Assembly (NCBI GenBank): GCA_963727895.1
Contig: CAVSHT010000009.1
Coordinates: 224,001-288,000 of the forward strand
Direction: 5' to 3'
Origin: an uncultured Methanosarcinaceae archaeon
GTDB lineage: Archaea > Halobacteriota > Methanosarcinia > Methanosarcinales > Methanosarcinaceae
DNA length: 64,000 nucleotides
Shown here one piece after another: positions 9,705 to 56,781 of the stretch; the stretch's first letter is position 1, and each line of letters opens with the position of its first letter. The position numbers and the translations under genes were made by a program. Under the pieces are notes generated by a model. The model did not search any database and was not told the DNA's origin. It saw only the letters and a list, made by a program, of their open reading frames with translations.

Positions 9705-9990
9705 ACTCTCCACCTTTTCTAAATTAGGTTATCTTTGCAGATCCTGAGAGAAAGTGCCGATTCTTCTCCCGGGCTGCCAAAAATTTATTTTTCCCGAAAC
9801 GAGGTAACTCTTTCTCTTTCGAGAGGTCCTTTCCGATCTTTATAGCTGGATTTGCGAACTCTTATGGTTTGGGCTTTCATGCCCGATAAGCCGGTAAACG
9901 TGATTTTAGTTTTAACTGGAAGGAGGTTGATGTATTTATCAATTACTGTGTTTGATAAAATCATATACAATCGATCAAGTGATTTATAGG

Positions 9991-10190
9991 ATGAAAAACT
10001 TCAAACTGAAAAACGATCTAATTGTATTGAATTGGCTCTTGTCAATTGACGCAAGTACCAACACTGAGCGTAATTACTTTCAAGCTATAAAAGCATTTTG
10101 CGAATTCACAAAGAACGTCAGTTGAACTTATTCGGGAAGCTGAAAATAAAAGAAAAGCTGGTCTATGTATGAGAAGTGTATTAGAATAGA
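9991..10190 (+). pseudogene. N-terminal remnant of a Methanosarcina-type site-specific (tyrosine) integrase
   Basis: manual translation MKNFKLKNDLIVLNWLLSIDASTNTERNYFQAIKAFCEFTK, then shifted VELIREAE..KAGLCMR; resembles the N-terminus of methanosarcinal integrases; truncated just before IS110. Confidence 0.55.
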
Positions 10191-10275
10191 TTTCATTATT
10201 TTCACAGTAAAAATATCATATTTCAGAATATTTCATGCTATCAATTTAGCATGAAAGTACATGAGGAAATTATCC

Positions 10276-11540
10276 TCACGTGCTCTCTTGATCCTTTTTC
10301 CCCATAATCGCAAATATTCCACTAATTATTTTAATCAGTTCATCAACCGAAAAAATCTCAGTTTCAATAATCTTTCTCTTTTGGATTTCTCCCTTTTGAT
10401 ATCCGGTTTCATCTTCGTCCATCTCATCGTTTGTAATAAGATGCCATAATATCGTTGCAATTTTCCTTGCTAAGGCAATAATTGCTTTTGCATGTCCAAT
10501 CGACTTCTTTTTTCTGTTAAAAAACTATTTTAACCTGCTATTCTTCTTTCTTGCTGCTGCTTGAGCAATCTGTGTCAGAATCCACCTTGCTACTTTTGAT
10601 TCCCTCTTTGTGATTCTGCCGTTATAGTATTTATCTGCAGATTGATACACATTAAGAACTAGACCAAGCCAAGAAGCAAGCTTATTTCCAGAAGAAAAAT
10701 CCTTAAAGTTGCCTATTTCAGCAAGTAAAATTGCCGCACCAAGTTTCCCTATACCTGGAACTGACATTAAAATCTCCATTTCTCGCTTATGATTTCGAGA
10801 AGCATAATTGAAAATTTCTTTTTCTAAAGCTTCGAGTTCATCATCAAGACTTTTTATGAGTTTCAGACAGATCTGAAGTCTAAATGCAGCACTTTGAGAA
10901 ATTTCTCGATCAAAAATTTCTCTTATCTGAGCAGCTTTTTTCCGAACATTTGGAGAGAGGCTTGCAATAATCTGATCAACACTCTTACCTGAAGAGATTC
11001 CTAATAAGATCATTCTGCCATTCTTGCCAAAAACGTCTGTCAGAACATTATTCAGGTGTAGCATTTCAGATGCAAGAATTGAATTTCAGATGCAAGAATT
11101 GAGTGAGCTTTATTTTTTAAATCTGTTCTTTTTTGTACAAGTGTTAACCGAAGTCGAACATATGATCTAAAATCTATATGATCCTTTGGAAAAACTCTTG
11201 ATGGCTGAATCATATTATTAAGTGCAAGTTGTGCAATGACTTCTGAGTCAATCTTATCTGTTTTTGTATGGGTAAATACCTTCATATCTCGCGCATTTCC
11301 AACTATCACAGTTAGATGCTTTACCAATGAATCATGAATCGGAACCCAAAAGTCGCTGGTTGATTCACATGCAACAACATCACATTTTTCTGATATTACC
11401 CAATTTTTAAGGGCTAAAATTCCTTCATCATCTCTGTTGAAACGTTGCTGTTGTTTTTCACCAGATATACTGAGAATTGTAGCAATGAAAAAGAGTTTGT
11501 GAATGTCTAAACCACAAGCTTTGTTTATGACTTCAATCAA
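10276..11540 (-). pseudogene. IS110 DEDD recombinase/transposase, disrupted
   Basis: GLDIHK, ACESTS, KTDKID (D-E-D-D), SVPGIG, QSAD, ITKR motifs; 20-bp duplication frameshift at 11063-11102 and TAG at 10525. Confidence 0.93.
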
Positions 11541-11775
11541 ATTAGATCACCAAATTTATTTGGGCAGTGGAATTGCCTAAAAGGCCAATTTAGCATCCGT
11601 GATCAAAGTCACACTTGAGCCTTCGATGGCAATTCACTGATTAGTTTTAGGACGGTTTTGATAAACCAAAATCGAGACAACCTTACTGCCCAAGGTAATG
11701 AGGACTTAATAGTCAAAAAAAAGAACGGAGAGTACTGTCATTAGTTGTGCTTGTTATTCGAAGAAAAGCATGTGC
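11541..11775 (-). ncRNA. candidate bridge/seek RNA in IS110 non-coding end, copy 1
   Basis: outer stem ttgggcagt 11560-68 / actgcccaa 11685-93 encloses two stem-loops with matches to target and donor junctions. Confidence 0.65.
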
Positions 11776-11777
11776 GT

Positions 11778-12273
11778 TGTAGGGGTAAGTCACGTTTCTG
11801 TCCAAAAATGGATAAAGAAATTTGGTAAGGAGTTAGAGGCTCTAAAAAGTGAAAATGAGATATCTATTGTTGAAATGGATGAAATGCACACGTACATCGG
11901 TAACAAAAAAAAATATTGCTGGATCTGGATTGCTGTTGATAGAGTTGGGAAAAAGTTCATCAACTGCTCTTTTGGTAGCAGAGGAACGGAAACTGGAAAA
12001 CTACTCTGGGAAAAAGTGAAGAAAAAAGAGATTGGAGAAGTGATGACAGATCACTGGAGAGCATATGCAGAGTTTATTCCAGAAAAGAGTCATACTCAAT
12101 CCAAAGCAGAAACATTTACAGTTGAGGGATATAACAGCATATTGAGGCATTTCCTGGTAGATTGAGAAGAAAAACAAAGTGTTATACAAAAAGTCTTGAA
12201 ATGCTAAAGTACTCGGTTATTCTATTGATGAAATACAGAAATAAAGAACTAGATATAGTTAAGTAACAATGCC
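11778..12273 (+). mobile_element. IS1-family element, right part only
   Basis: GVSHVSVQKWIKK, EMDEMHTYIGNKK, TDHWRAY, VEGYNS; right end taacaatgcc; left part missing beyond IS110. Confidence 0.92.
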
Positions 12274-12649
12274 AATTTACCTTCTGAGAAATCAAGCTGT
12301 AAATTTCAATATTTAATTATTGAATATATTTATAGTTTTATTTTTTGAGAATTGCAAGATCTGTTATAATAGAAAGAGTGAAAATAGTATAGATTATTTT
12401 ATATAAATTTTAATATATACAATTTTTATTATATATAATGTCATTATATAGATAGAAGGATTTATGTAATATAGCGTTTTCAACTATTTTTCATTACAGA
12501 TTAAACATTAATTTACTGAGGTACTACGCACTAGAGAAAATAAGGAGTTAACGTACTTTATGCACGCAACTACCTTTATAGTAACACACCGAGAGTGCCT
12601 TGACCACGGTACCGCCTGAAGAACAACAAATCGAAAAAGAGGCATACCA

Positions 12650-16359: not shown

Positions 16360-17099
16360 GGCATTGGTACACAAAAATAGATATATGTGCTTATAACATA
16401 TATTTCTTCATTAACTGCCCCAGATGCAATAGTTCTAATTACAAAAATAATGGTATAGTTGGCGGGCGTCAACGGTACAAATGCTCTGATTGTGGCTATA
16501 ACTATACAGTAGAGCTAAAATCAACTGCTTTTTCCGCTTCTGTAAAAAGACAGGCTTTACAACTTTACCTTGAAGGATTAGGCTTTCGTTCAATAGGAAG
16601 AGTTTTAGGGGTAAGTCATGTTTCTGTCCAAAAATGGATAAAGAAATTTGGTCAGGAGTTAGAGGCTCTAAAAAGTGAAAATGAGATATCTATTGTTGAA
16701 CTGGATGAAATGCACACTTACATCGGTAATAAAAAAAATATTGCTGGATCTAGATTGCTGTTGATAGAGTTAGGAAAAAGTTCATCAACTGCTCTTTTGG
16801 TAGCAGAGGAACAGAAACTGGAAAACTACTCTAGGAAAAAATGAAGAAAAAAGAGATTGGAGAAGTGATGACCGATCACTGGAGAGCATATGCAGAGTTT
16901 CTTCCTGAAACGATTCATACTCAATCAAAAGCAGAAACATTTACAGTTGAGGGATATAACAGCATATTGAGGCACTTTTTGGCAAGGTTGAGAAGAAAGA
17001 CAAAGTGTTATACGAAGAGTCTTGAAATGCTAAAGTACTCGGTTATTTTATAGATGAAATACAGAAATAAAGAGGTAACTATATTTAGTTAACAATACC
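16360..17099 (+). mobile_element. IS1-family element, full length but inactivated
   Basis: ends ggcattggtacacaaaaatag ... tagttaacaatacc; insA start mutated, internal stops; no TSD. Confidence 0.93.
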
Positions 17100-20008: not shown

Positions 20009-20750
20009 GGTATTGTTAACTGAATATATCTAGTTCTTTATTTCTTTATTTCATCAATAGAATAACCGAGTACTTTAGCATTTCAAGACTTTTTGTATAA
20101 CACTTTGTCTTTCTTCTCAATTTTGCCAGAAAATGCCTCAATATGCTGTTATATCCTTCAACAGTATACGTTTCTGCTTTGGATTGAGTATGGATCTTTT
20201 CTGGAATAAACTCTGCATATGCTCTCCAGTGATCTGTCATCACTTCTCCAATCTCTTTTTTCTTCACTTTTTCCCAGAGAGTAGTTTTCCAGTTTCCGTT
20301 CCTCTGATGCCAAAAGAGCAGTTGATAAACTTTTTCCCAACTCTATCAACAGCAATCCAGATCCAGCAATATTTTTTTTGTTACCGATTTAAGTGTGCAT
20401 CTCATCCATTTCAACAATAGATATCTCACTTTCACTTTTTAGGTTCTCTCACTCTTGACCAAATTTCTTTATCCATTTTTGGACAGAAACATGACTTACC
20501 CCTAAAACTCTTCCTATTGAGCGAAAGCCCAATCCTTCAAGATAGAGTTGTAAAGCCTGTCTTTTTACAGAAGCGGAAAAAGCAGTTGATTTTAGCTCTA
20601 CTATATAGTTATAGCCACAATCAGAGCATTTATACCGTTGACGCCCGCCAACTATACCATTATTTTTGTGACTGGAACTATTACATTTTGGGTAGTTCAT
20701 GAAGAAATATATGGTATAAGCATATATATCTATTTTTGTGTACCAATGCC
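20009..20750 (-). mobile_element. IS1-family element, inactivated
   Basis: ends ggtattgttaac ... gtaccaatgcc; insA/insB fragments with premature stops; no TSD. Confidence 0.93.
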
Positions 20751-21070
20751 TTAAATAGTTCTGATAATCTAGTGAGGTCCTTAGTAAATTGGTTATAATC
20801 TGCAAAATTTGGTGAACTTAGTGGACTAAAATGGCTACACCCTTTGCAATTTAAATTACAATGATCTACTAAATGAGTTTCGAGCTTGGGAAGAACATTC
20901 TTATAATACATTAACTTTGCTCTATATTTATAAATGTTTGACATTATAAATACAGCTTTAGGATCGGTTAGATGCTGGTATATTATAGTGCGGTATGCCA
21001 CATTAGAATATATATGAGACTGTGCATATAATTTTATCATATACACAGTCATCTTTGGAAAAAGCTGCAA
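20751..21070 (-). pseudogene. radical SAM protein N-terminus truncated by IS1
   Basis: ETHLVDHCNLNCKGCSHFSP (CxxxCxxC) runs directly into the IS1 end at 20750. Confidence 0.8.
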
Positions 21071-53270: not shown

Positions 53271-54292
53271 ATAAGTGACAAAAGTATAAAAAGATGTGCT
53301 TGATGTGTATTACCCGAAACAACACCAAACATTATTTTTGATGAAGATGGTGTATGTAATTTTTGCCACTTTCATAAAAAAGCCCAATATGAAGATGAAT
53401 CAAAATTAAAGGAGTTACTATACTCATATCGTAAAAAAGACAACAAGTATGATTGTATTGCAGGGATAAGCGGTGGAAGAGATAGTAGTTACACACTTAT
53501 TAAACTTGTAAAAGATTATGATTTCAAAGTTTTGGCAGTAAATTATCAAAGTCCTTTTACTGATCCACAAGCTAACACAAACATTGACAACGCTGTCGAA
53601 GCATTAAATGTTGATATTGTAAGTTTTAAACTGAAGAACAATATGCATGAGAAAATATTTAAATATAATTTTAATTCGTTTCTTTGCAACCCATCTCCTG
53701 CAACTATACCTATGATATGTATTTCTTGTAAAACTATTTTATATTATACAATAAAATACGCAAAAAAATATAATGTAAAATGTATCGTACAAGGAGGAAA
53801 TCCTTATGAGGATACTTCTTTCAAACAAGAATTGTTAAACTTTTCTGGGGATGGAAGCTGTCAGGATAACTTCAAAAAATGTTTAGGAAGGGTTTATGAA
53901 CTAAATGTTAAAAAACCCGCGTTACTGCCATCCAAAGTGTATACCCACAATGATAAAAGGATATTTATATGGAGATCCTTATGCTTTTGGACCTCGTATA
54001 TTTTCATCGGATATTAGATTTATAGATTTATTCCATTATATTCCATGGCGAGAAGAGGAAATTTTGTCGAGAATTAAGAAAGAATTGAAATGGGAAAGTC
54101 CGCGTAAATATAGCTCAACTTGGGGATCTGATTGTAAAATAGGTCATTTAAAAGATTTATTGTATATGAAGACACTTAACATGACCGAAAAGGATGATTT
54201 TTATTCTAAAATGGTAAGAGACAGCCTTATCACTCGGGATAAAGCACTTACAAGGTTAAATGATGAAAATAAACTATATATAAATGAAATAC
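53271..54292 (+). pseudogene. N-acetyl sugar amidotransferase (WbpG-like PP-loop), disrupted and IS1-truncated
   Basis: KRCA*CVLP...FDEDGVCNFC, KYDCIAGISGGRDSSY, DCKIGHLKD; start mutated, TGA, frameshift near 53900. Confidence 0.82.
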
Positions 54293-54566
54293 GGCATTGG
54301 TAAACAAAAATAGTTATATACTATTAGAAAGTATATTTCTTCATGAACTGCCCAAAATGTAATAGTTCTAATCACAAAAATAATGGTATAGTTGGCGGGC
54401 GTCAACGCTACAAATGCCATGATTGTGGATATAACTATACAGTAGAGCTAAAATCAACTGCTTTTTCCGCTTCTGTAAAAAGACAGGCTTTACAACTCTA
54501 TCTTGAAGGATTGGGCTTTCGCTCAATAGGACGATTTTAGCATGAAAGTACATGAGGAGATTATCC

Positions 54567-55831
54567 TCACGTGCTCTCTTGATCCTTTTTCCCCATAATC
54601 GCAAATATTTCACTAATTATTTTAATCCGTTCATCAACCGAAAAAATCTCAGTCTCAATAATCTTTCTCTTTTGGATTTCTCCCTTTTGATATCCGGTTT
54701 CATCTTCGTCCATCTCATCGTTTGTAATAAGATGCCATAGTATCGTTGCAATTTTCCTTGCTAAGGCAATAATTGCTTTTGCATGTCCAATCGACTTCTT
54801 TTTTCTGTTAAAAAACTCTTTTAACCTGCTATTCTTCTTTCTTGCTGCTGCTTGAGCAATCTGTGTCAGAATCCACCTTGCTACTTTTGATCCCCTCTTT
54901 GTGATTCTGCCGTTATAGTATTTATCTGCAGATTGATACACATTAGGAACTAGACCAAGCCAAGAAGCAAGCTTATTTCCAGAAGAAAAATCCTTAAAGT
55001 TGCCTATTTCAGCAAGTAAAATTGCCGCACCAAGTTCCCCTATACTTGGAACTGACATTAAAATCTCCATTTCTCGCTTATGATTTCGAGAAGCATAATT
55101 GAAAATTTCTGTTTCTAAAGCTTCGAGTTCATCATCAAGACTTTTTATGAGTTTCAGACAGATCTGAAGTCTGAATGCAGCACTTTGAGAAATTTCTCGA
55201 TCAAGAATTTCTCTTATCTGAGCAGCTTTTTTCCGAACATTTGGAGAGAGGCTTGCAATAATCTGATCAACACTCTTACCTGAAGAGATTCCTAATAAGA
55301 TCATTCTGCCATTCTTGCCAAAAACGTCTGTCAGCACATTATTCAGGTGTAGCATTTCAGATGCAAGAATTGAATTTCAGATGCAAGAATTGAGTGAGCT
55401 TTATTTTTTAAATCTGTTCTTTTTTGTACAAGTGTTAACCGAAGTCGAACATATGATCTAAAATCTATATGATCCTTTGGAAAAACTCTTGATGGCTGAA
55501 TCATATTATTAAGTGCAAGTTGTGCAATGACTTCTGAGTCAATCTTATATGTTTTTGTATGGGTAAATACCTTCATATCTCGCGCATTTCCAACTATCAC
55601 AGTTAGATGCTTTACCAATGAATCATGAATCGGAACCCGAAAGTAGCTGGTTGATTCATATGCAACAACATCACATTTTTCTGATATTACCCAATTTTTA
55701 AGGGCTAAAATTCCTTCATCATCTCTGTTGAAACGTTGCTGTTGTTTTTCACCAGATCTACTGAAAATTGTAGCAATGAAAAAGAGTTTGTGAATGTCTA
55801 AACCACAAGCTTTGTTTATGACTTAAATCAA
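54567..55831 (-). pseudogene. IS110 transposase, disrupted
   Basis: same 20-bp duplication (55354-55393), early stop codons, KTDKID changed to KTYKID. Confidence 0.92.
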
Positions 55832-56066
55832 ATTAGATCACCAAATTTATTTGGGCAGTGGAATTGCCTAAAAGGCCAATTTAGCATCCGTGATCAAAGT
55901 CACACTTGAGCCTTCGATGGCAATTCACTGATTAGTTTTAGAACGGTTTTGAATAACCAAAATCAAGACAACCTTACTGCCCAAGGTAATGAGGGCTTAA
56001 TAGTCCAAAAAAAGAACGGAGAGTACTTTCATTAGTTGTGCTTGTTATTCGAAGAAAAGCATGTGC
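55832..56066 (-). ncRNA. candidate bridge/seek RNA, copy 2
   Basis: same stems as 11541-11775 with a few substitutions. Confidence 0.62.
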
Positions 56067-56781
56067 GTTTTAGGGGTAAGTCATGTTTCTGTCCAAAAAT
56101 GGATAAAGAAATTTGGTCAGGAGTTAGAGAACCTAAAAAGTGAAAGTGAGATATCTATTGTTGAAATGGATGAAATGCACACTTACATCGGTAACAAAAA
56201 AAATATTGCTGGATCTAGATTGCTGTTGATAGAGTTGGGAAAAAGTTCATCAACTGCTCTTTTGGCAGCAGAGGAACGGAAACTGGAAAACTGCTCTGGG
56301 AAAAAGTGAAGAAAAAAGAGATTGGAGAAGTGATGACAGATCACTGGAGAGCATATGCAGAGTTTCGTCCAGAAAAGATCCATACTCAATCAAAAGCAGA
56401 AACGTATACTGTTGAAGGATATAACAGCATATTGAGGCACTTTTTGGCAAGGTTGAGAAGAAATACAAAGTGTTATACGAAAAGTATTGAAATGCTAAAG
56501 TACTCGGTTATTCTATTGATGAAATACAAAAATAAAGAGTTAATTATGTTTAGTTAACAATACCGATAATTATTCAGAATAGTAAGAAAGATCCCGAAGG
56601 TGCTGTATCTACTGTATCCCCCAATACAGTCTCTTCGAAATATTATGCTTCCCCAAACATACTAATTCGAAGAAGGATCAGCGACCTCCAAGAGATTCTT
56701 TTATTTCGGTGGTATCCCGTGATACCCTACTTTACTTATTTCCCAACTCCAGCATATACTAAAAACGTAAATTATTTTAAA

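Follow-up and report, generated by a model that had tools for sequence, protein, structure and literature searches.

Insertion sequences (IS) of the IS110 family have a published RNA-guided mechanism (PMC11208160, PMC11208158, PMC11187229), and some IS110/IS1111-family elements insert at a specific target within another transposable element. IS1383 targets the inverted repeats of IS1384 (Muller et al.), and IS4321 and IS5075 target the inverted repeats of Tn21; both cases are cited here from titles in the reference list of PMC11208160. The subject here is an IS110-family element with two copies in a 64,000-nucleotide (nt) stretch of archaeal DNA (the window; positions 224001-288000 of contig C9 of genome G000), where it lies next to or within IS1. 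The element has, with high confidence, spread by repeated, independent and orientation-specific insertion at one helix-turn-helix (HTH) coding site of IS1, most likely guided by a bridge/seek RNA.

The element resembles IS621 (PMC11208160, PMC11208158) in several respects. Both have a DEDD RuvC-like domain and a Tnp domain with a conserved serine. The RNA region, predicted for the present element, lies upstream of the gene in both and has two internal loops, one for both crossover sides of the target and one for the element ends. Both target a multicopy repeat and produce no target duplication beyond shared core bases. The two differ in guide order, with LTG (nucleotides 50-58) before RTG (77-80) in IS621 and the top-strand complement first here. 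The shared core is an A-run here and CT in IS621. The protein is 390-414 amino acids (aa) long compared with 326 aa for IS621, and the similarity is weak (E = 4e-9, confined to the C-terminal domain). The present host is an archaeon, and the target is the coding region of another IS, whereas IS621 targets a REP element.

Other features are shared with the IS1111-type elements (PMC11187229). The complement of the top strand comes before that of the bottom strand in the guide RNA, the GL-P----S motif is present (GLVPNVYQS), and beyond a short inverted motif centred on CATG there are short asymmetric extensions. Inspection of relatives by eye showed only a short CATG(A)AA motif near both ends. 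Members of that group also target other mobile elements. In contrast, the non-coding region lies upstream here and downstream in the IS1111 subgroup, for which rare upstream exceptions such as ISMtsp17 are described (PMC11187229). Proteins of the group typically have 330-350 aa, fewer than the present one, and no end-to-end repeat corresponding to the 11-13-bp subterminal inverted repeat of IS1111 was present among the 25 longest pairs. The predicted RNA layout is unusual in that it combines an upstream, IS110-like region with an IS1111-like order in which the top-strand complement comes first.

The original prediction of a transposon targeting a transposon is correct, though not new for the IS110 family. 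As with IS1383, IS4321 and IS5075, an IS110/IS1111-family element has a specific target within another transposable element; the targets of those three are bacterial terminal inverted repeats, whereas the present one is the HTH coding sequence of IS1, in an archaeon, with ~240 potential targets. Targeting of transposons by such elements being known already, this is a new archaeal example and not a new principle. A search of the literature on IS110 in Methanosarcina, IS110-family targets and nested insertions, with ISfinder and subscription journals outside its scope, yielded no IS110-type element targeting IS1.

Copies of the element and their position in IS1

The two window copies are both pseudogenes (Table 1). 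Their right junctions read ...GCATGTGCGTT(T/G)TAGGGGTAAGTCA... at approximately 11778 and 56069, which is the same IS1 position, as had been predicted. The prediction also held both copies to be inserted in IS1. This stands for copy 2, which is flanked by IS1 on both sides, and only in part for copy 1, which has IS1 on the right side and unrelated DNA without IS1 on the left. The strings by which the two host variants had been told apart are exact. In the window, GAGGCTCTAAAAAGTGAAAAT is confined to 11836, in the host of copy 1, and 16662, in an empty IS1; GAGAACCTAAAAAGTGAAAGT is confined to 56127, in the host of copy 2, and 20428, in an empty IS1 on the minus strand. Shuffled sequence gave 0 matches to either string.

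Table 1. Features of the window, with positions counted from its first nucleotide.
Feature	Position	Strand	Remarks
IS110-family element, copy 1	10248..11779	-	Pseudogene; 20-nt repeat x2
IS1 right part beside copy 1	11780..12276	+	92.0% identical to counterpart beside copy 2
Empty IS1, variant hosting copy 1	16360..17099	+	
Empty IS1, variant hosting copy 2	20009..20753	-	
Host IS1 of copy 2, left part	54290..54538	+	Zn-ribbon and first HTH half
IS110-family element, copy 2, in IS1	54539..56070	-	1,532 bp; sister copy matches PF01548 and PF02371, NF033542
Broken transposase gene, copy 2	54567..55618	-	Open reading frame (ORF) fragments 55343-55618 and 54567-55355, plus upstream stop
20-nt tandem unit, 2 units	55354..55393	.	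TRF: period 20, 2.0 copies, 100% match
Candidate bridge/seek RNA	55851..55984	-	Outer stem plus two arms; in each arm, an internal loop encloses an inner hairpin
Arm 2, 3' loop segment GAUGCUAAAUUG	55877..55888	-	Equals element right end CATGCTAAA; putative donor guide
Arm 1, 3' loop segment UUCUAAAAC (most copies UCCUAAAAC)	55935..55943	-	Equals left-end-side target (CCTAAAA)
Arm 1, 5' loop segment UCUUGAUUU (most copies UCUCGAUUU)	55960..55968	-	Complementary to right-end-side target (AAAATCG...)
Host IS1 of copy 2, right part	56071..56565	+	Remaining HTH, DDE_Tnp_IS1 region

The insertion point in the IS1 N-terminal protein is ...SIGR|VLGVS.... It falls within an HTH_23 match (residues 43-85, 29.9 bits against a cut-off of 24.6, E = 4.7e-7), in agreement with the predicted site in the insA helix-turn-helix codons. 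The same protein has a weak Zn_ribbon_InsA match, and the right part of the IS1 beside copy 1 matches PF03400 (DDE_Tnp_IS1) with E = 1.9e-14. This is the layout of the IS1 family, an N-terminal protein with Zn-ribbon and HTH followed by DDE_Tnp_IS1 across an A8/A9 run. Because the HTH-coding region is split, each insertion inactivates its host IS1, and the predicted inactivation follows directly.

The target site is 5'-CCCCT-AAAA(A)-TCG-3' on the strand antisense to IS1. The commonest IS1 variant has four T (window strand) when empty, and three T and four T at its junctions when occupied. The element contributes three T, and a five-T variant gives four and four. These counts fit a conservative exchange in the shared A/T run without duplication. 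Insertion is thus site- and orientation-specific with no target duplication, as in the IS110 family. The element ends are ambiguous by up to 4 nt, the T-run plus AG being common to element and target. Contigs of two DNA and two RNA sequencing runs were compared with positions 54300-56600. One 1,620-nt DNA contig covers the entire element plus IS1 on both sides. The inserted length of 1,532 bp agrees with a joint that skips 1532 in the contigs; the sides of such joints are 31 nt or shorter and may derive from other, empty IS1 copies.

The window is part of a 3.67-Mb assembly of 19 contigs with ~36.5% G+C and a completeness of 84%. Its sequence relatives are Methanosarcina and the Methanosarcinaceae. 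IS1-like DNA amounts to 178 kb, or 4.85% of the genome, in ~240 copies, 222 of which have an uninterrupted (empty) site. This expansion is extreme, and since the copies average 5.8% apart, it is old or comes from several sublineages.

A BLAST search of the genome identified 23 copies of the element and two diverged fragments. IS1 is present at the same position on at least one side of 20 of the 23 copies, always in one orientation. Ten copies have IS1 on both sides (one with an internal deletion). Six have IS1 on the left only, two of these with a truncated or diverged left end of the element and one interrupted by another IS. Four have it on the right only, one of which keeps just 17 nt of IS1, and three have it on neither side. 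All 16 left and all 14 right IS1 flanks share one position and one orientation. As IS1 makes up so small a part of the genome and yet flanks 20 of 23 copies at the same position, the association is not due to chance. The genome-wide mapping proposed with the original prediction therefore places most copies in IS1 and not outside it. The three insertions wholly outside IS1 are at CCT/TCT-AAAA-T/C sites.

Candidate guide RNA and its match to the flanks

The proposed mechanism is that of an RNA-guided DEDD/serine IS110-family element that would insert repeatedly at one short site of the IS1 family. The target is most likely selected by a bridge/seek RNA whose sequence lies within the 238 nt upstream of the transposase gene. 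In one internal loop of this predicted RNA, UCCUAAAAC repeats the target sequence on one crossover side and UCUCGAUUU is the complement of the other side; a segment in the second loop matches the right end of the element itself. The majority of copies are defective and must have been mobilised in trans or before decaying. Direct observation covers the copy census, the analysis of flanks, the distances, the family of the protein and the matches between RNA region and flanks. We infer that the RNA is made and guides recombination, and the same applies to the exact position of the crossover and to any benefit to element or host.

The fold was obtained with RNAalifold from 12 upstream regions (2 from this genome and 10 from relatives, ~80-92% nucleotide identity) and has 40 pairs in its consensus. 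As in other IS110-family elements, the predicted RNA has two internal loops that match target and donor. Matches between guide and flank were read by eye. The 3' segment of arm 1, UCCUAAAAC, has the sequence of the target next to the left end, CCCCTAAAA, and the 5' segment, UCUCGAUUU, is the complement of the target next to the right end (AAAATCG). In alignment columns, the reverse complement of the right flank (114-123) precedes the left flank (140-148).

In relatives inserted elsewhere, the same loop positions match their own flanks (M. spelaei, L003-L009 and L028; L012 on the left only). On the left side, M. spelaei has CAGAAAAC with ...AGAA|AAC flanks in 7 of 9 left junctions; AGAAAAAC is found in L003 and L028, CAGAAAAC in L006, and CCCTAAAC in L012. 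For the right side, the loop segments and the flanks that they face are CCUUAUUUU and AAATAAG (M. spelaei), CUUUUCUUUGG and CCAAAGAAAA (L005), and GCAGAUUUU and AAAATCGGCA (L006). The donor loop follows the element's own right end (AUGCUAAA, AUGCCAAA, AUGUUAAA, AUGGAAAA), with L012 as the sole exception. A Methanospirillum element with 54% protein identity has UUUAAAAAAC, UCUUAAUUUU and AUGGAAAA, which match its TTAAAAAAC left flanks, AAAATT right flanks and CATGGAAAA right end, respectively. Natural retargeting between close archaeal relatives is documented in this way.

None of the relatives' loci L002-L055 contains IS1. Among the matches listed for 40 other genomes, of which 24 belong to the same genus, none spans the junction. 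Three hits that run 12-45 nt past the junction were examined and set aside, as they are 48-nt left-end-like pieces without IS1.

A more far-reaching reading is doubtful. It holds that the target loop was naturally reprogrammed in the Methanosarcina radiation, from loose AT-rich sites to IS1 coding sequence. The element would then be an IS1 hyperparasite of a distinct archaeal lineage (upstream RNA, IS1111 guide order), its activity gated by a 20-nt repeat with 1, 2 or 4 units. If true, the element knocks out IS1 copies singly, and the repeat would switch the frame off and on.

Site occupancy and competing explanations

Three main classes of IS1 site were distinguished, 4-A TC (CCTAAAATCG), 5-A TC (CCTAAAAATCG) and CTC (CCTAAAACTC), and occupied sites were assigned from their left junctions by the T-run rule. 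Occupied were 6 of 11 sites with CCTAAAATC, 7 of 67 with CCTAAAAATC, 3 of 146 with CCTAAAACTC and 0 of 14 in other classes. Compared with the CTC class, Fisher tests gave p = 2e-6 for CCTAAAATC and p = 0.012 for CCTAAAAATC. As mismatches to the guide accumulate, occupancy drops from 55% to 10% and then 2%. The genome offers a natural titration of bridge/seek-RNA targeting, with ~240 near-identical targets that differ at few guide-facing bases.

Several observations weigh against guided insertion as proposed. Outside IS1, the 9-mer CCTAAAATC occurs 67 times and the 10-mer CCTAAAATCG nine times, and all are unoccupied (p = 2e-6 and p = 0.014, respectively, compared with IS1 sites). Because these perfect matches are empty, base pairing as read does not alone explain the bias toward IS1. 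The scheme does not explain the ten copies with IS1 on one side only, and a sub-lineage with both guide segments changed (UUCUAAAAC / UCUUGAUUU) is still in IS1. Compensatory changes are found in just 2 of the 40 pairs of the fold, and an Rfam scan of 54400-56200 with E up to 1 gave no family. The matches read by eye are weak at the right side of L012 (4 nt) and at L009 (4-5 nt). No circle junction (back-joint) was found in the contigs of the four runs, which cannot show rare circles. The RNA contigs carry 14-17 differences and therefore come from relatives; they have no bearing on expression and provide no strand-specific RNA evidence. In addition, no assembled copy combines an open frame with an intact DEDD motif, and current activity of the element is therefore unproven.

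The bias toward IS1 has two possible sources. Either selection removes insertions outside IS1, or IS1 supplies a further determinant. A requirement for a stem-loop in the target is reported for ISPpu10 (bioRxiv 10.64898/2026.03.19.712850). The original prediction had proposed that IS1 offers a multicopy safe harbour. This is consistent with the 67 unoccupied 9-mers outside IS1 as opposed to 6 of 11 occupied inside, but an extra determinant would give the same pattern. With perfect matches outside IS1 remaining empty, the share of base pairing in specificity can be set against that of context or selection.

Selection as the sole cause of the bias is improbable. On this explanation, the element needs just a short AT-rich motif (~CCTAAA(A)T), and the bias arises afterwards by selection, which removes insertions in genes and leaves the neutral ones in IS1. 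Insertions at partial matches outside IS1 speak for it, as do the loose AT-rich targets of relatives and the unoccupied 9-mers and 10-mers, which match as well as the IS1 sites do. However, CCTAAAT and CCTAAAAT occur 449 and 253 times outside IS1 and only 7 and 8 times inside, so that selection alone would have to clear away almost the whole of this great excess. Furthermore, selection should be equal within IS1, and yet occupancy there follows the guide match. Selection probably contributes in any case.

Independence of the insertions was assessed from nine uninterrupted copies with IS1 on both sides (36 pairs). Insert distances are 0.6-1.5%, with one older copy at ~6% (mean 0.022), and the host IS1 halves differ by 4.4-8.7% (mean 0.065). 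The host distance is larger in 34 of the 36 pairs, both exceptions involving the older copy, and the two distances are uncorrelated (Spearman rho = 0.12, p = 0.49). Of the 224 full IS1 right halves, 10 are occupied, and diversity among these matches that of all 224 (0.060 and 0.058). The nearest relative is an empty IS1 for 7 of the 10, and the mean nearest-occupied distance is not below random, 23% of 2,000 random sets being equally small. In the first 50 nt from the junction, right halves diverge by 0.043 when occupied and 0.046 when empty, and IS1 variants differ between copies 1-10 nt from the junction.

Given these distances, the scatter of the occupied IS1s and the undiminished divergence at the junction, it is unlikely that one composite was copied or that gene conversion between IS1 copies spread the element, and independent insertion is supported. 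This is what had been predicted, and the histories of insert and host, for which a comparison had been proposed, are not congruent.

It is very improbable that homologous recombination or gene conversion, and not transposition, carried the element from one IS1 copy to another. The flanking homology (~245 and ~495 bp at 90-98%) would permit such exchange, the left and right host halves are often discordant in their relationships, and an Asp/Tyr polymorphism of the transposase (D/Y, described below) is mixed over the insert lineages, which suggests some exchange between copies. Conversion does not agree with the divergence next to the junction or the variants immediately beside it, nor with the three copies wholly outside IS1, whose sites share just a short motif, nor with an occupancy that depends on few guide-facing bases. 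A single IS1::IS110 composite that arose once and was then copied whole by IS1 transposase in trans is largely refuted and is the least credible of these explanations: IS1 is highly abundant, the host IS1 ends look intact in the ten two-sided copies, and one pair of occupied right halves are mutual nearest relatives (d = 0.018), but the inserts of that pair differ by 5.8% and its left halves by 10.4%, no composite pair has host halves less than 4.4% apart, the inserts being ~1% apart, occupied IS1s are scattered among empty ones, and the IS1 variants adjacent to the junction differ between copies.

Here one selfish element disables copies belonging to another, a case relevant to what holds IS expansions in check.

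State of the transposase and other observations

The least damaged copy (C4:393023-394535, 1,513 bp by its BLAST ends) has a 390-aa ORF, P0001. It matches PF01548 (DEDD_Tnp_IS110; E = 2.5e-17, residues 9-150), PF02371 (Transposase_20, the C-terminal Tnp domain; E = 3.6e-26) and NCBIfam NF033542, "IS110 family RNA-guided transposase" (261 bits, cut-off 140). Its C-terminal domain aligns with that of IS621 (8wt6), including the catalytic-serine motif (GLVPNVYQS and GLTPRRYES). Both the DEDD domain and the Tnp domain with its conserved serine, characteristic of the IS110 family, are thus present. The gene has ~238 nt of non-coding DNA upstream and ~30 nt downstream.

This only uninterrupted ORF has Tyr in place of the Asp of KTDKxDSE, which is taken to be the third DEDD residue from the family motif. 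Asp is found in 19 of 19 readable relatives. Among 21 copies in this genome, at least 12 have Asp and six have Tyr, the sole open ORF included.

Of 21 copies, 4 have a single 20-nt unit, 16 have two units, which puts them out of frame, and one has four, in frame. With two units, the gene is divided into a pair of overlapping ORFs exactly at the boundary of the RuvC-like and Tnp domains, and the second ORF begins at an in-frame Met. The repeat could be a reversible off/on switch or could give a split enzyme. One unit, Asp and an open frame occur together in no assembled copy. In L012, another tandem duplication, of 15 nt, lies near the position of the repeat. Most copies have stops and two units and differ from one another by ~1%. 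Judging from this, defective copies must have moved in trans or before decay, or else the family has died out in this genome. The unassembled 16% of the genome may also contain an intact copy.

Nesting in the reverse order was seen at G000:C4:92480-94168. Here an older IS110-type copy (77% identity) is cut short by an adjoining IS1 and retains positions 569-1533 only; IS1 has evidently also inserted into IS110-type elements. At G000:C6:20882-25504, an IS110-type copy is interrupted after approximately position 250 by ~3.1 kb. The insert has perfect inverted ends (TGTCAATGCCGG...) and an apparent 6-bp duplication, contains IS1, and is a third kind of mobile element. Its inverted end, TGTCAATGCCGG, recurs as a loose end in run X1.

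The flanks of the copies at C11:230587 and C3:275981 were considered as a swapped pair or as part of a CRISPR array. Both were ruled out, as the flanks are copies of a ~50-nt dispersed repeat (GTTTTACAAyAAAAC...CAGATTTT). This repeat is found at G000:C3:275930-275980 and C11:228990-229040, and also in C4, C5 and C8. Its end resembles the target's right half, and two of the hybrid copies have it as a flank.

The left flank of copy 1 contains a 10-nt inverted match to the element end (10215-10260; TTTCATGCTA ... TAGCATGAAA, 5-6 nt apart). By analogy with the donor-like "half-match" sites described for IS621 (bioRxiv 10.64898/2026.08.31.748434), this may be a donor-type site of that kind, or it may be due to chance. 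Just left of copy 1 (9952-10240) is a short, apparently truncated ORF whose translation, judged by eye, is like the N-terminal part of a tyrosine recombinase/integrase.

At the right end of the element (54541-54585), the last ~40 nt form a potential hairpin with 18-nt arms. It is conserved in a relative (L001:1528-1568) and also in L004, and may be a terminator or a recognition structure.

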